Below, piece by piece: positions 4,762 through 47,818 of a stretch of 64,000 bases of DNA (position 1 is the first letter of the stretch; every line of letters begins with the position of its first letter). The stretch is from an uncultured Alphaproteobacteria bacterium. Its GTDB lineage: Bacteria; Pseudomonadota; Alphaproteobacteria; RF32; CAG-239. The stretch lies in NCBI GenBank assembly GCA_934270475.1, contig CAKQPS010000001.1, positions 42,480 to 106,479 on the forward strand, in the 5' to 3' direction. Both the position numbers and the translations under genes were made by a program. The notes beneath the pieces were generated by a model, which was not told the origin of the DNA, did no database searches, and was given only the letters and a program-made list of their open reading frames with translations.

Positions 4762-5859
4762 ATGGTTAATAAGATGAAAATATTTTCTATATTCGGCATT
4801 TGCGCCTCTTTATTACCGATGTTGGCACATGCGCAACAGGTTCCGCAATTTCAAGAACAGGTATATTATCAGCAGCCTGCGTATTATCACCCGCTGGCGC
4901 CGCAAGTTCAGCAGCAGCGCAGTCCGATTGAACAAATTGTTTGGAACAATAAAGTCCGCTGCGGCAGCGATATGAGCGTCAAAACCTATGCTCATAAAGA
5001 AGACGGCGTATGGAGCGGTATTGATGCTGATTTATGCCGCATAATTGCGCAGGCTCTGTTAGGCGACAACCGAAAAATTCAGATGGTAAACGTATCACAA
5101 AAAAATATGTCTCGCGCTTTGGATGAAGACAGAATTGATATTATGCTGAGCGGCGGAGCTTATTCAGCAAAAACAGAAACCTCCCGCCAAGCCTTGAGTG
5201 CCGGATTTTTGTATTATGACCACCAAATGCTGATGGTGCATAAGGACGCACCTGATGACCTGAAAGAATATAAAGATAAAAAAATCTGCATTTCTACAGA
5301 TTCCGACTATTATAAAAATTTTGACGATTACAACTTAAATAACTCGCTCGGTATGCGTTATTTAACATTTAATACCCTGAAAGAAGCTAAAGAAGCATTC
5401 TTGCTGAACAGATGTCAGATGATGACGGCAAGCGGCTTGATGCTGAACGGTATTTTGCGCGATTTGTCGGGCGGCAGCGCTAAAATTTTGCCGCAGCAAA
5501 TTGCTTTGCATCCGGTTTATGCCTATGTTCAACGTGACAATGCCGAATTGCGTTTGGCGCTGAAATGGATATTCAATGCGCTGTTTTTGGCAGAAAAATA
5601 TGATATAAATGGGCAGAATTTGAGCTTTTTTGCCTCTAACGACAATCCGGAAATCCGCAATTTGCTGGGCGATGACGAACAGCTGTGGCTTGATTTGAAA
5701 GTAAAGCCGCACTGGGTGAAAGAAGTTATTTCTTTGTTTGGCAACTATCGTGATATTTATGATAAAGATTTAGGCAAAGATTCCGACTACAATTTGGAAC
5801 GCGGCGAAGGCAAACTGGTCAAAGACGGCGGCACCATCTACCCCCTGCCGTTTATGTAA
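4762..5859 (+). CDS. Periplasmic amino-acid-binding protein (family 3 SBP, AapJ/BztA-like) with a Q-rich N-terminal extension
   Basis: Signal peptide; WSGIDADLCRIIAQALLGD and DIMLSGGAYS motifs resemble AapJ-type binding proteins. Confidence 0.5.
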   Translation: MVNKMKIFSIFGICASLLPMLAHAQQVPQFQEQVYYQQPAYYHPLAPQVQQQRSPIEQIVWNNKVRCGSDMSVKTYAHKEDGVWSGIDADLCRIIAQALLGDNRKIQMVNVSQKNMSRALDEDRIDIMLSGGAYSAKTETSRQALSAGFLYYDHQMLMVHKDAPDDLKEYKDKKICISTDSDYYKNFDDYNLNNSLGMRYLTFNTLKEAKEAFLLNRCQMMTASGLMLNGILRDLSGGSAKILPQQIALHPVYAYVQRDNAELRLALKWIFNALFLAEKYDINGQNLSFFASNDNPEIRNLLGDDEQLWLDLKVKPHWVKEVISLFGNYRDIYDKDLGKDSDYNLERGEGKLVKDGGTIYPLPFM

Positions 5860-5899
5860 ACTGACGCGTGTTTAAATTCTATGAGTTTTAAGTGACAAA

Positions 5900-6838
5900 C
5901 TATAATGCCTCATTTATAAAATCTTGAACATCTTTTTTAGATTCAGCAACTTTATAAACGTATGTTGTTGTTCGCCCCACACGATTTGAAGCTGTATAAT
6001 TCTTTTCCAACGCTGCATTCTGCAACTCTTTTATTAAAGACTTGCTGTTGCAGGTAATCTCTTTGCTTTCGCTGGAAAATTTCAGGCAAAGTTTAACCTC
6101 TGATGTAACTTTGTCGGAAAAATGTATTTCTATCTGTTTATACTTTTCACCGTTTCCGCAATTTTCCCAATCAAAATAGCAAGCATAAAAAGCGCCTTTC
6201 GGATTATGCACCCACACAATATTAAAATCGTGCCCGTCCAGTGTGGAACTTAAATAACTAAACCATTTTTCGGCGCACCAAGTTTTTATTTCATTATCAT
6301 CACAATTTTTTATCTGCCCTTCTATTTTATCCAGCCTGTTATAATAACTTTCAAAAATTAAATCACATTTACTGTTATCTTTCAGCAATTCTAACATATC
6401 TTTACGCCGCAAAGAACAACAATCACTTTGATGTAACACACTTTCATCAGGCGTTTTATAATCACGCACATAATCCATTGTTTTTAAATAGCATACTTTA
6501 ATCTCTTGCCCTGAATACAATTTGTCATTTTTCAAAGCCTCAACATATCTTGCAATCTGATTATCATGCTCGTTTGTATATGTTTTATCTTCAATAATTA
6601 AAAGATGAGAGTTTGTAACAACTAAAACATCAATATTTAAATATTGCTTCTTTATTTCACAAATTTCTTCATCTTTTGCAATTCTGCATTTTTCCAAGAA
6701 AGAGTGAGCGATGCTAAATTGCTGCGGATATTTATCTTTATATGTTTTTATACCAAAAATCAGCATATAGCAAAGAAAGGCATCTTGTGACAATTCATTT
6801 GTGGCATAGTCAAAAATATTAGGCTGTTCAATATTCAT
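5900..6838 (-). CDS. Hypothetical protein with a PD-(D/E)XK nuclease-like core and a Cys-rich C-terminal half
   Basis: NIDVLVV...LLIIEDKTY gives a D...E-D-K arrangement typical of the restriction-endonuclease-like fold; no family assigned; AT-rich flanks. Confidence 0.35.
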   Translation of the reverse strand: MNIEQPNIFDYATNELSQDAFLCYMLIFGIKTYKDKYPQQFSIAHSFLEKCRIAKDEEICEIKKQYLNIDVLVVTNSHLLIIEDKTYTNEHDNQIARYVEALKNDKLYSGQEIKVCYLKTMDYVRDYKTPDESVLHQSDCCSLRRKDMLELLKDNSKCDLIFESYYNRLDKIEGQIKNCDDNEIKTWCAEKWFSYLSSTLDGHDFNIVWVHNPKGAFYACYFDWENCGNGEKYKQIEIHFSDKVTSEVKLCLKFSSESKEITCNSKSLIKELQNAALEKNYTASNRVGRTTTYVYKVAESKKDVQDFINEAL

Positions 6839-7088
6839 AGTTTTATTCTCTCATAAAAAAAATCATTATTTGCCGATAGTTATCAGGACGCTGCTCTTAT
6901 AAAGTTCAAATTCGATGATAACGTAACTATAAATTAAAGGCAATTTATTATTAAAGCTATTAAGAGTTTATTTAGTACAAATTATAACCATCTAAAACTT
7001 TCAAAAAATTAAGCAAAGAAGATTGTTTTTTTACCGACAAATGAGAAACACCGCAAACGCGCTGTGTGCAACGATTTGAAAAAAACAC

Positions 7089-7117
7089 TTGATTTCTGTA
7101 TTTTTATATTATATAAG
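7089..7117 (+). promoter_or_regulatory. Putative sigma-70 promoter for tRNA-Trp (TTGATT, 17-nt spacer, TATAAG)
   Basis: -35/-10-like hexamers with 17-nt spacing ending about 15 nt before the mature tRNA 5' end. Confidence 0.3.
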
Positions 7118-7132
7118 ACTTAAAGATTTTAT

Positions 7133-7208
7133 AGGGGTATAGCTCAGTTGGTAGAGCATCGGTCTCCAAAACCGAGTGTCGTGAGTTCGAATCTTACTGC
7201 CCCTGCCA
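7133..7208 (+). tRNA. trnW: tRNA-Trp (anticodon CCA)
   Basis: Cloverleaf is readable: acceptor AGGGGTA/TGCCCCT, D-arm GCTC-AGTTGGTAG-AGC, anticodon loop CT-CCA-AA, T-arm GTGAG-TTCGAAT-CTTAC, 3' CCA encoded. Confidence 0.9.
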
Positions 7209-7213
7209 AAAAT

Positions 7214-7240
7214 AAAGCCGCCTTTTGGGCGGTTTTTTTT
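7214..7240 (+). terminator. Rho-independent terminator after tRNA-Trp
   Basis: AAAGCCGCC-ttttg-GGCGGTTT stem followed by T8. Confidence 0.7.
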
Positions 7241-7281
7241 ATGGCATTTTATCCATTTATGCTATTATAAAAATATATGCT

Positions 7282-7310
7282 AAAACGGCGAAAGGGATTT
7301 CGCCGTTTTT
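7282..7310. terminator. Hairpin terminator downstream of trxA (usable from both strands)
   Basis: AAACGGCGAAA-ggga-TTTCGCCGTTT, an 11-bp stem with T/A runs on both sides, 26 nt past the trxA stop. Confidence 0.6.
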
Positions 7311-7335
7311 ATATTCTTGCTAAATACTCTGTCTC

Positions 7336-16159: not shown

Positions 16160-17077
16160 ATGCTTGGACGGTTTTTAGAAAGTTTTTTAGAATCTGAAGC
16201 AGCGGAAAAAGGCGCAGCGCAAACTACTTTGTCCGCCTATGAGCAAGATTTGCGGCAATTTTTAGAGTTTACCAAAATAGACCAGCCCAAAGATTTGAAT
16301 GAAGAAATAATAGAAAAATTTATTCAAAATCTGCAAACTGAAGACTATGCCGCCAAAAGCTTAGCCCGCAAGCTTTCTTCCATTAAAGATTTTTGCAAAT
16401 TTCTTTATTCGGAAAAAATTATAGAAAACAATCCCGCTGCCTATATCTTAACTCCTAAGCAAGAAAAGCCTCTGCCTAAATTTTTAACAGTTGCCGAAAT
16501 AAAGCTGCTGATTGAGACGGCTTTTGCCAAAACCGACTACCGCTATTGGCGAATCGGAGTAATGATTGAGCTGATGTATGCAACCGGACTGCGGGTTTCT
16601 GAATTGGTAGGACTACCGGAAAACGCCATAAATTATAAAAAAGGGCTGATAACTATTTTTGGCAAAGGCAGCAAAGAGCGGGTGGTTCCGGTTGCCGAAC
16701 AGGCTCTGAAATCTTTAACGGAATATGCAGATTTACGGTTGGAATTTATCAAAAAAAATTCTGTATCGCACTGGCTGTTCCCGTCTTTGACTTCGGTTTC
16801 CGGTCATTTAACCCGCGACGCCTTTTATAAAGATTTGAAAAAACTGGCGGTGGACTGCGGGATTTATCCGTCACGGGTTTCACCCCATGTTTTACGGCAC
16901 TCGTTTGCCACTCATCTTTTGAATAATGACGCCGACCTGCGCTCCGTGCAAAAAATGCTGGGACATGAGAGTATTGCCACAACGGAGGTTTATACCCATA
17001 TCACCTCGCAAAAATTGGGCGACATCGTGCGCAAAAAACACCCGCTATCCCATTTTACGGAAGAAAAACATGCCTAA
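16160..17077 (+). CDS. xerD: Tyrosine recombinase XerD (or XerC)
   Basis: HVLRHSFATHLL and LGHESIATTEVYTH catalytic motifs; 305 aa; no island context, so treated as housekeeping dif recombinase. Confidence 0.75.
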   Translation: MLGRFLESFLESEAAEKGAAQTTLSAYEQDLRQFLEFTKIDQPKDLNEEIIEKFIQNLQTEDYAAKSLARKLSSIKDFCKFLYSEKIIENNPAAYILTPKQEKPLPKFLTVAEIKLLIETAFAKTDYRYWRIGVMIELMYATGLRVSELVGLPENAINYKKGLITIFGKGSKERVVPVAEQALKSLTEYADLRLEFIKKNSVSHWLFPSLTSVSGHLTRDAFYKDLKKLAVDCGIYPSRVSPHVLRHSFATHLLNNDADLRSVQKMLGHESIATTEVYTHITSQKLGDIVRKKHPLSHFTEEKHA

Positions 17078-22323: not shown

Positions 22324-23058
22324 ATGAAAAAACAAAGTGAAATTGAAAAATTTTCTGAAAATATTAAAAAGTTAATCAACTATTTTAAAAGCGAAGAATT
22401 ATCAGATGAGAAATTTAATGAGCTCCTCGTACGCAGAAATAAAATAAATTTAAGCAGCATTGAGCAACTTTTAAACAAATTGGAAACAACAAATAATCCG
22501 GAGACTAAAGATTTAATTAAACTAAGTCGCTTAGATAGAAAAGCCGAATATTATAAAGATATTTTGGATAATCCGAAGATGTTTCAGCAAAAAAAACGCT
22601 TCCGCGATTTTTCACACAAAATTGCCGTATTGAAAAACTCTTTTAAAAGAAAACACCCCTATATTTATAAAATTGCTGCCGTGGTCGCTAAAACTGTTTC
22701 TTTTACGGTCGGCGCCATAGGTTCTATGTTTATGGCTGGCGCATCTCCGGAAATTGCCTCGGCTCAAACCGGTAGAAGCGGAGCAGAAAATGCTTATGAA
22801 GCTGAAAGAATCAAACTCAAGTACAAGCTGGATAGAAAAGGGAACAGCCGTTCCGAAGCATCAGAACCATCGGAAAAAAATTCATCTTTGAAAGAAATAT
22901 TGTCGCAAGACAGTGCAAATCATCATAGCTTAAATCGTATCAAAACTAAATTAAATAGCAAACCACTACAGGAAGACGTCCAGAAGCCGCAAATCAGCGA
23001 AAAAACAAAAAATCCGACGCAGAATACTCATATTTCAAGAGGTACACGAGAGATATAG
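22324..23058 (+). CDS. Hypothetical Lys/Ser-rich protein with one central hydrophobic segment
   Basis: 244-aa ORF with a 210-bp AT-rich upstream region; no recognisable domain. Confidence 0.45.
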   Translation: MKKQSEIEKFSENIKKLINYFKSEELSDEKFNELLVRRNKINLSSIEQLLNKLETTNNPETKDLIKLSRLDRKAEYYKDILDNPKMFQQKKRFRDFSHKIAVLKNSFKRKHPYIYKIAAVVAKTVSFTVGAIGSMFMAGASPEIASAQTGRSGAENAYEAERIKLKYKLDRKGNSRSEASEPSEKNSSLKEILSQDSANHHSLNRIKTKLNSKPLQEDVQKPQISEKTKNPTQNTHISRGTREI

Positions 23059-46857: not shown

Positions 46858-46900
46858 TACCGCTGGATTTTTATTTGTCCGGCGGTTTTCTCTTTTTTTA
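46858..46900. terminator. Hairpin plus T-run terminator between convergent genes
   Basis: CCGCTGGA-tttttatttg-TCCGGCGG followed by TTTTCTCTTTTTTTA. Confidence 0.55.
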
Positions 46901-47818
46901 TTTCTTATCCTTTTTATTTTTAGCCGATTTTGCGGCTTTTGTTTTTTTAGCCGATTTTTTGACTCTGGAGCCATTATTTTTTGCTGTCGGCAATAGCGTA
47001 TCATTTTTTAACGAATCCATGGCTGTATTCTCATCTAACGGACTCGGATTTTCCGGTGAAAAAATCTCCAGCTGCGACTGAATTACCATCATAATCATCA
47101 CGACATACAAACAAATAATATAATTTGCGGCAAAATCAACCACAATAGTTGTTACGAAATAAAAATTCTTATATAAAAATATTTTCAATAAAATATTCAA
47201 CTGAAAAGAGATAAAGTTGATTAAGAGCAAAATTACACCATATGTAAAAACAATGCTGAAACTTTTATCGGTTGTTTGCTTCCATATAAGTTTTAGCGAT
47301 GGAAATTTTCCATTTGCCATATAACTACCGACAGCGCCTGCCATACGCACAATTAAAAACGGTACCCAGCAGCAGGCAAATGCTATCAGAAAATAAATAA
47401 ACTCAATTTTCCAATTTGGATTCGGCTCTTTTGTAACCATAGCAACAACCATTACTAATGAAAAAATCAGCAGCAGCAAAACCAAAAACAATAAACCGAT
47501 TTTTTTCAGGCGTCCGCGTTCCAAACTGATTATATTTTTTAGAGAAAATTTTTTGCCGTTAAATTCTATATCGTAAAAATCTACAAAAAAGGCAAAAATA
47601 ACGCATAGCATTAAAAATTTATCGACAAAGAACATTGCCGAAGTTAAATTTGGACACCACCATGCTGGATTCATCATATCACAGGAATAATTTTGCCCAA
47701 AAGCTAAAGAAATTACCGTCATAATCAAAGCATAAAAAGCTATAGCTTTATAGTGCTCAAAACTGTTTTGAAATAAAGACAACGTTTTCCAAACCAATTT
47801 AGGGAATGTAAATTTCAT
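46898..47818 (-). CDS. Hypothetical polytopic membrane protein with a Lys-rich C-terminal tail
   Basis: 306 aa, at least 6 hydrophobic segments; ATG 1 nt after the dnaE stop (co-transcribed). Confidence 0.5.
   Translation of the reverse strand: MKFTFPKLVWKTLSLFQNSFEHYKAIAFYALIMTVISLAFGQNYSCDMMNPAWWCPNLTSAMFFVDKFLMLCVIFAFFVDFYDIEFNGKKFSLKNIISLERGRLKKIGLLFLVLLLLIFSLVMVVAMVTKEPNPNWKIEFIYFLIAFACCWVPFLIVRMAGAVGSYMANGKFPSLKLIWKQTTDKSFSIVFTYGVILLLINFISFQLNILLKIFLYKNFYFVTTIVVDFAANYIICLYVVMIMMVIQSQLEIFSPENPSPLDENTAMDSLKNDTLLPTAKNNGSRVKKSAKKTKAAKSAKNKKDKK

Follow-up and report, generated by a model that had tools for sequence, protein, structure and literature searches.

A solitary PD-(D/E)XK nuclease gene beside tRNA-Trp in an uncultured alphaproteobacterium, very probably derived from small tRNA-targeting islands

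Layout of the tRNA-Trp locus

We analyzed a 64,000-nucleotide stretch of DNA from an uncultured Alphaproteobacteria bacterium (contig CAKQPS010000001.1, positions 42,480 to 106,479), referred to here as the window, and focused on a 312-amino acid (aa) open reading frame (ORF) located between a solute-binding protein (SBP) gene and the gene for tRNA-Trp. The original prediction, made from the sequence alone, had described this ORF as an orphan nuclease of the PD-(D/E)XK type, possibly carried by a mini-island at the tRNA. The ORF is present as described and encodes the two segments on which that assignment was based, NIDVLVV (containing D70) and LLIIEDKTY (containing E83-D84-K85). The features of the locus are listed below with their positions in the window; GC denotes guanine plus cytosine content.

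5900 to 6838, minus strand: nuclease gene, 312 aa, ATG start, stop codon at 5900-5902 (ORF listing, Pfam PF14281)
6374 to 6838, minus strand: N-terminal PD-(D/E)XK catalytic domain, about residues 1-155
6584 to 6631, minus strand: codons of the catalytic motif D70...E83-x-K85 (IDVLVV...IIEDK), read from the sequence
5903 to 6241, minus strand: C-terminal alpha/beta domain, about residues 200-312, modeled as an antiparallel beta-sheet backed by helices
6839 to 7020, no strand: AT-rich leader and promoter region of the nuclease gene, 24% GC, part of an insertion/deletion (indel) of ~1.1 kb
7021 to 7132, plus strand: upstream arm of tRNA-Trp with a conserved promoter, -35 TTGATT at 7089-7094 and -10 TATAAG at 7112-7117
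7133 to 7208, plus strand: tRNA-Trp (CCA), found by ARAGORN and Rfam; its positions 1-41 are the island repeat in related genomes
7214 to 7236, plus strand: intrinsic terminator of tRNA-Trp (terminator scan)

The nuclease gene is convergent with an SBP_bac_3 gene (4762-5859), and 40 bp separate the two stop codons. Housekeeping genes flank the locus on both sides: the SBP gene is accompanied by cysS, gltX, and MlaC, and trx, addA, and addB are found at the opposite end. The tRNA-Trp gene is the sole tRNA detected in the window by ARAGORN and Rfam, and the spacer between it and the nuclease ORF (6839-7132) is 294 bp long at 26.2% GC. No integrase, methyltransferase, or small partner gene adjoins the nuclease gene. 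The convergent SBP gene, the AT-rich spacer of about 290 bp abutting the tRNA, and the lack of a visible cognate methyltransferase or integrase had all been part of the original prediction, and each holds on closer analysis. The spacer contains neither an ORF nor coding remnants, only the tRNA scores above threshold when it is searched with Rfam, and a promoter scan found promoter-like hexamers in it at chance frequency.

The nuclease locus is the lowest-GC stretch of the entire window. The nuclease ORF has a GC content of 32.1%, compared to 41.5% for the window and 40-46% for the neighbouring genes. Only 7 of 631 sliding 939-bp windows have a lower GC content, and every one of them overlaps the nuclease locus.

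A two-domain protein with an intact PD-(D/E)XK active site

Pfam assigns the protein to PDDEXK_4 (PF14281) with 35.4 bits against a gathering cutoff of 22.3 (E value of 1.3e-8, residues 60-155). NERD appears as a sub-threshold Pfam match, and the PADLOC profiles PDC-S26 and CARF_PDDEXK match the nuclease core only. An AlphaFold2 model built from the homolog alignment is confident, with a predicted local distance difference test score of 93.4 and a predicted template modeling score of 0.87, and has two domains. The model matches the cleavage domains of BspD6I and FokI and places the catalytic residues on strands E69-75 and E78-85, with E15 on helix 1. The protein has both hallmarks of the PD-(D/E)XK superfamily, a D...(D/E)xK motif on core beta-strands and a restriction-endonuclease-like alpha/beta fold. 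The nuclease fold, originally proposed from the motif, is backed by profile searches (most clearly by PDDEXK_4 and more weakly by NERD and CARF_PDDEXK) as well as by structure prediction.

Across an alignment of 75 homologs, the most distant at about 26% identity, 19 positions are invariant. These include E15, Q18, D19, D70, E83, D84, K85, Q94, and Y98 in the N-terminal domain and G215, Q235, and G288 in the C-terminal domain. In the linker helices that precede the C-terminal domain, W187 is invariant and W192 is found in 73 of the 75 sequences. The C-terminal half had been described as rich in cysteine and tryptophan, and so it is; the tryptophans of the linker are conserved, while the cysteines are not. 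We considered a Cys-rich metal site and rejected it, as hydrophobic residues replace the cysteines in distant homologs and there is therefore no metal-binding cluster.

Foldseek returned no full-length relative from the PDB or BFVD and no PDB match at an E value of 1e-3 or better; the BFVD matches were only generic phage PD-(D/E)XK proteins aligned over the nuclease domain. Sequence and profile searches of the PDB gave no match, NCBIfam gave none, and PHROGs gave nothing significant. Based on the model and the alignment, we regard the predicted PD-(D/E)XK fold as established, together with an active site that is both complete and invariant. It is likely that the protein is an active, metal-dependent nuclease. 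Nuclease activity itself, DNA as the substrate, and a defense role are what we infer from here on.

The PDDEXK_4 family

We collected 504 homologs of the nuclease protein, nearly all of which have the same Pfam assignment. The closest (50-92% identity) are all from uncultured gut Alphaproteobacteria. An exhaustive profile search gave 4374 clusters at 50% identity with E values up to 1e-3 and 1136 clusters with E values up to 1e-30. Nearly all members of the 1136-cluster set are 320-350 aa long and match from end to end, and therefore the two-domain architecture defines a large, conserved, and uncharacterized subfamily. The sole domain fusion seen in the family is an N-terminal DUF6530. The core-only pattern of PADLOC matches was repeated in ten other family members.

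A search of 50,697 phage records found no homolog, and the IMG/VR viral contigs contain two weak relatives only. Four plasmid matches were found at 26-29% identity, all in unannotated neighborhoods. The variable regions that hold distant homologs also carry McrBC, WYL, NERD, Fic, PIN, HipA, and PemK genes.

Related genomes carry the gene inside compact islands

Loci from related genomes are referred to here by L numbers. In four gut alphaproteobacterial metagenome-assembled genomes (L006, L007, L011, and L012), the homolog lies inside a compact island. Starting at the intact tRNA, the island holds, in this order, variable cargo, a 115-aa XRE repressor gene, and the nuclease gene, which is divergent from the repressor. 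These are followed by small ORFs including a Septknot protein, a PrimPol and DUF3987 gene, a gene for a protein of ~123 aa, a tyrosine integrase gene, and a displaced tRNA fragment. The cargo is AAA_23 with MC5 and CTD9, or AAA_21 with GIY-YIG, or DUF488. From its position and sequence, the ~123-aa protein is a putative excisionase; a Pfam search of the small island ORFs, including this one, gave nothing informative.

The islands are bounded by perfect direct repeats. In L007, L011, and L012, the repeat is 42-43 bp long and corresponds to tRNA-Trp positions 1-41, enclosing islands of 9.6-9.9 kb. The two copies are at the following positions.

L007: 1753-1795 and 11434-11476
L011: 5025-5066 and 14967-15008
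L012: 5288-5330 and 14919-14961

In L006, which stands for a sister branch with the customary use of a tRNA 3' part, a 52-bp perfect repeat of the 3' part of tRNA-His encloses an island of 7.3 kb. The integrases of the tRNA-Trp and tRNA-His branches are ~65% identical. A half-copy of tRNA-Trp also adjoins the integrase gene in L028, L029, and L030. Because recombination takes place in the 5' half of tRNA-Trp, islands of the tRNA-Trp branch come to lie 5' of the regenerated tRNA, which depends on them for its promoter. Integration upstream of a tRNA with a 5'-half repeat is a recognized but uncommon configuration. The use of the 5' half also explains why the nuclease gene in the window is found 5' of tRNA-Trp, in the opposite orientation; relative to the tRNA, it is placed as in L007, L011, and L012.

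Upstream of tRNA-Trp, a stretch of ~110 bp in both the window and L033 has a block structure in common with the island-internal arms of L007, L011, L012, and L030, and is less similar to the native sequences upstream in L037 and L007. In alignment A3 of the tRNA-Trp upstream arms, CTTGATTT and TATA are invariant. This comparison suggests that the tRNA-Trp promoter in the window may itself be island-derived.

The slot between the XRE gene and the tRNA differs from island to island. It holds AAA_23, MC5, and CTD9 genes in L007 (2155-5185), AAA_21 and GIY-YIG genes in L011 (5473-7191), and a gene for a 670-aa GHKL-ATPase protein in L030 (14787-16799). By analogy, the slot looks like the defense hotspots described for phage satellites, and its contents would be putative conflict systems.

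The Septknot protein (PF19647) is a conserved island protein of ~95 aa with repeated DDKYDA motifs, and its gene is often directly downstream of the nuclease gene. Genes for it were located at 8790-9077 in L004, 6986-7273 in L006, 10395-10724 in L011, and 1843-2124 in L025 and L026, as well as in L028-L030. Septknot is also found in islands without the nuclease and in an unrelated defense-rich locus.

The nuclease gene as cargo, and stages of island decay

Islands can also be found through their PrimPol gene. Of the loci found this way, L028 has the nuclease; L029 and L030 have the integrase, PrimPol, and Septknot genes but lack it. The excisionase-like small ORF was matched in L029 and not in L030, and L030 keeps the XRE gene, with two unrelated genes occupying the slot beside it. 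Between L011 and L012, the nuclease is 100% identical, compared to 79% for PrimPol and 86% for the integrase. In other island pairs, the nuclease diverges faster than PrimPol (52% versus 70% identity). These comparisons indicate that the nuclease is cargo, and not part of the core, of the island family.

Several loci form a decay series. L012 is an intact island. L003 is the L012 locus, with its LptG-gmk flank, minus the segment running from Septknot through PrimPol, excisionase, and integrase to the tRNA fragment; the nuclease and two small ORFs are kept. L010 corresponds to the tRNA-His locus of L006; it has the nuclease and lacks integrase and PrimPol. The window, where the gene alone is retained, stands at the end of this series. 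We searched the window for the island integrase, PrimPol, repressor, and tRNA fragment, and the spacer for remnants of island proteins, and found none. A direct-repeat search found no other copy of tRNA-Trp in the window, with chance matches of 14 nucleotides at most. By the Islander definition, an island has an integrase and a displaced tRNA fragment on the correct side. Both are found in L006, L007, L011, and L012 and neither in the window, which therefore holds at most a remnant.

Taking these loci together, it is very probable that the nuclease gene is an island-derived accessory gene. The mini-island at a tRNA that had been suggested for this locus is thus supported by the relatives as far as its origin is concerned. 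A repeat of the tRNA 3' end flanking the gene, which was also to be expected from that suggestion, is absent, and the relatives use the 5' half of tRNA-Trp.

Presence or absence of the gene in close relatives

We used the SBP protein as a probe and found cysS-gltX-MlaC-SBP-tRNA-Trp loci without the nuclease in two lineages. In L033-L036, SBP is 89% identical to that of the window and the gap between SBP and the tRNA is 168 bp. In L037-L040, the corresponding values are 75% and 89 bp. The homology between the window and L033 extends past the SBP stop codon as far as about 5893 and picks up again near 7020, with 93 of 96 bases identical over window positions 7045-7140. The interruption therefore amounts to an indel of ~1.1 kb (~5897-7020) that contains just the ORF and its 24%-GC leader. 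In L033, about 38 bp stand in its place, and L033-L036 all lack the leader.

A tree of flank-gene identity groups the loci as ((window, L016, L002), (L001, (L033, L034))), (L037, L038). L001 carries the nuclease, and its sister L033 does not. The nuclease is thus polymorphic for presence and absence at the SBP-tRNA-Trp site between close lineages, and other homologs are found at other tRNAs inside intact islands. A housekeeping-like conservation of the gene at this locus, which would have spoken against an accessory gene, was not observed. Between the window and L001, the identity of the cassette is a mosaic of 79-96%, compared to 83-84% for the SBP flank.

An uninterrupted frame of 312 codons is found in the window, L013 (100% identical DNA), L016, L001, and L002. 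The ratio of nonsynonymous to synonymous substitution rates (dN/dS) for the nuclease gene is 0.175 against L001, 0.236 against L002, and 0.097 against L003, with a dS of 0.20-0.27 for the solitary pairs (dN/dS 0.18-0.24). The neighboring housekeeping genes have a dN/dS of 0.03-0.13. The leader evolves fast, at 79% identity to L002 and 68% to L001. The solitary nuclease gene is under purifying selection without any partner. The original prediction had offered a remnant or a single-gene system as alternatives, and both descriptions apply: the gene was left over or copied from an island, and purifying selection maintains it in the solitary state.

Comparison with known systems

The window protein shares the D...ExK core of Pfam PDDEXK_4 (residues 60-155). 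The Pfam model describes the nuclease core only, and the protein belongs to a two-domain subfamily of ~320-350 aa whose C-terminal domain lies outside it. Sequence identity to FokI, N.BspD6I, and the small subunit of R.BspD6I is 11-14%. Compared to FokI-type enzymes, the two domains come in the opposite order, the cleavage domain being N-terminal, and no FokI-type recognition domain can be recognized. Unlike type II and type IIS restriction-modification systems, neither the window gene nor its homologs in the island contexts have a methyltransferase beside them.

The match to PADLOC PDC-S26 aligns residues 46-118 to profile positions 85-150 of 413 only, short of a full-length match. Structural matches to Can2, Card1, and Cap4 cover about 100 residues of the nuclease domain. 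In contrast to these proteins, the window protein has no match to a CARF or SAVED sensor in Pfam or PADLOC, and no cyclase or CRISPR genes are nearby. No small antitoxin gene is co-transcribed with the nuclease at the window locus, as would be the case in a type II toxin-antitoxin system.

The related loci share several features with tRNA-integrating genomic islands and with small phage-satellite-like islands of the PICI and PICMI type, which are typified by an integrase, AlpA, and a DUF3987 primase. These features are a tyrosine integrase, a putative excisionase, PrimPol with DUF3987, a regenerated tRNA with a displaced fragment, and defense-like cargo. The window itself has no island genes, and satellite status is a possibility for the related loci. 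Among known systems, the window nuclease would work most like a stand-alone restriction-type nuclease.

Proposed origin and role of the solitary nuclease

The best explanation overall, to which we assign a probability of about 0.55, is that the nuclease is an island-derived, stand-alone gene kept as a single-gene defense or exclusion nuclease. The source would be small integrative islands that insert at tRNA-Trp, using its 5' half and supplying their own tRNA promoter, or at tRNA-His. In the lineage of the window, all that is left of such an island between the SBP gene and the promoter of tRNA-Trp would be the nuclease ORF with a leader of about 180 bp, and the solitary state may have arisen by island decay or by recombinational cassette transfer. 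We consider the protein most likely to be a Mg2+-dependent DNA endonuclease, in which a helical linker connects a FokI/BspD6I-like cleavage domain (E15, D70, E83, K85) with a beta-sheet domain at the C-terminus that would serve target recognition or regulation. Since the gene survives alone under purifying selection without a methyltransferase, antitoxin, or repressor, discrimination of foreign DNA is probably intrinsic to the protein. The cue could be DNA modification (as in type IV-like restriction), DNA structure, or a trigger. A defense or exclusion role, considered by itself, stands close to even odds. Besides the island evidence, the low GC content, and the purifying selection, points in favor of the explanation are the McrBC, WYL, NERD, Fic, PIN, HipA, and PemK genes near distant members and the resemblance of the nuclease core to PDC-S26, a candidate single-gene system in PADLOC, and to the effector nucleases Can2, Card1, and Cap4.

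Several points weigh against this explanation. The contexts found by way of the nuclease are subject to ascertainment bias. The indel could represent either a loss in L033 or a lateral gain in the window and L001. There is no in situ proof of decay, as both a tRNA fragment and an integrase remnant are absent from the window. The likeness to PDC-S26, Can2, Card1, and Cap4 is confined to the nuclease core in every member tested, over about 70-130 residues of profiles with ~400 positions. The C-terminal domain has no Pfam match and no convincing structural relative, and target recognition is therefore a guess. A distant member, L043, is flanked by metabolic genes, and the only other ORFs in its vicinity are small and unannotated. 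A 2012 survey of the PD-(D/E)XK superfamily listed the function of PDDEXK_4 as unknown; we found no experimental or curated link between PDDEXK_4 and defense, and none of the homologs is a validated defense gene.

Alternatively, the nuclease could serve the island. It would be induced opposite the XRE repressor and cut the DNA of a helper phage, the host, or a rival element, which would promote replication or spread of the island in the manner of the interference nucleases encoded by satellites, and the solitary copy would be a recent leftover. In L007, L011, and L012, the nuclease is the first gene divergent from XRE and the pair is co-inherited; moreover, the integrase, putative excisionase, and DUF3987 primase resemble the mandatory genes that define PICMI satellites. 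We nevertheless consider this role unlikely. The L029 and L030 islands do without the nuclease, and the tRNA-His islands have it without the repressor. The gene persists free of any island in at least three lineages at a dN/dS of 0.18-0.24, and homologs are found on plasmids and in chromosomal islets with no such island. The near absence of homologs from phage and viral sequences (none in the phage records, two weak ones in IMG/VR) also argues against it.

It is quite improbable that the gene is a selfish, free-standing cassette of the homing-endonuclease type, which would cut alleles lacking the nuclease, in sister islands or close to tRNA genes, so that repair copies the ORF in. Such a cassette would account for the tight indel, limited to ORF and leader, and for homology between different contexts that extends no more than about 15-30 bp past the ends of the ORF. 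Identical nuclease genes in otherwise diverged islands, the repeated location next to tRNA genes, and a modular architecture of a cleavage domain with a separate putative binding domain also fit. No co-conversion tract accompanies the gene, however, as identity between the window and L001 is 83-84% in the SBP flank and varies over 79-96% in the ORF. The empty site differs by a replacement of ~38 bp and not by a clean insertion, the slot in L030 is occupied by other genes, and the insertion contexts vary between loci.

Marginally less probable again is a toxin or abortive-infection effector restrained by a partner, either XRE or a small upstream ORF, of which the window would hold a silent or attenuated copy. 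XRE adjoins the nuclease in the tRNA-Trp islands but is divergent, is not co-transcribed with it, and is kept in the nuclease-less island L030. The gene is directly preceded by small or unrelated ORFs in L025, L026, L043, and L044, and toxin-antitoxin genes are common in the neighborhoods of homologs; no partner is found in the window, L001, L002, L010, or L004, though, and all catalytic residues are intact in a gene under purifying selection. A functionless remnant on its way to a pseudogene would suit the loss of the rest of the island and the gene's absence from sister lineages, yet it is very improbable given the intact 312-codon frame in the window, L013, L016, L001, and L002, the dN/dS of 0.18-0.24 over a dS of 0.20-0.27, and the retention of 19 of 19 family-invariant residues.

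Extending the explanation as an island-derived defense or exclusion gene to the whole family, the two-domain PDDEXK_4 subfamily (more than 1000 clusters) might be a single-protein immunity or exclusion nuclease whose novel C-terminal beta-sheet domain reads a feature of foreign DNA, for example a modification or a structure, with no need for a methyltransferase. Chromosomes, plasmids, and tRNA-linked islands might exchange it as a bare ORF cassette that possibly propagates itself in a homing-like manner. This broader proposal is speculative, and we rate it as somewhat doubtful.

Island cargo left beside a tRNA gene is a common pattern, and this locus represents a fairly ordinary piece of accessory genome that does not overturn current understanding. 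Somewhat less usual are the size of the uncharacterized two-domain subfamily and, in the parent islands, integration into the 5' half of tRNA-Trp with replacement of its promoter. The locus traces small tRNA-targeting islands in uncultured gut Alphaproteobacteria through what would be 5'-half integration, cargo exchange, stepwise decay, and the keeping of one gene. If the defense reading is true, the protein would be a compact, tractable, and partner-free representative of a large PD-(D/E)XK family and would add a single-gene anti-phage or anti-plasmid nuclease system.

Other regions of the window and the 3' side of tRNA-Trp

The sole integrase-like match in the 64 kb is a gene for a 305-aa tyrosine recombinase (16160-17077), located beside a shikimate kinase gene and a DUF-type gene. 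We rejected it as the island integrase, as its length and context look like those of a housekeeping XerC/XerD. Other low-GC patches were considered as further islands and also rejected, as they are housekeeping genes. Two low-GC ORFs, at 22324-23058 (244 aa) and 46898-47818 (306 aa), have no Pfam match; their neighbors, a class II FBP aldolase and an LTXXQ protein, look housekeeping.

The ancestral downstream neighbor of tRNA-Trp appears to be secE-nusG, based on L038 and L037; in L038 (5641-6799), tRNA-Trp is followed by secE-nusG. In the window, the region downstream of the tRNA (7209-7335 and beyond) leads into trx-addA-addB, and neither secE nor nusG is found in the 64 kb. A sister species whose thioredoxin is identical to that of the window (L014, L015, L017, and L018) has another arrangement after trx and is uninformative on the tRNA-Trp site. 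Judged by gene order, the 3' side of tRNA-Trp is a predicted rearrangement breakpoint.

The tRNA 3' end with its terminator (7190-7249) is present as a single copy in the window and corresponds to a unit that is tandemly repeated in the relatives L001 and L033-L037. There, an array lies directly 3' of tRNA-Trp with a period of 160 bp, each unit opening with the last ~19 nucleotides of the tRNA and the terminator. Arrays were located at 7369-8257 in L035, 7533-8080 in L033, and 7066-7438 in L001, and also in L034, L036, and L037. L035 has 5.5 copies at 93% identity, and the other relatives have 2-6. The arrays are followed by variable defense-type genes, including HsdR, Fic, GmrSD_N, AAA_21, DnaB_C, and an integrase fragment. 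The arrays may be scars of serial integration and excision or the result of amplification of an attachment (att) site.

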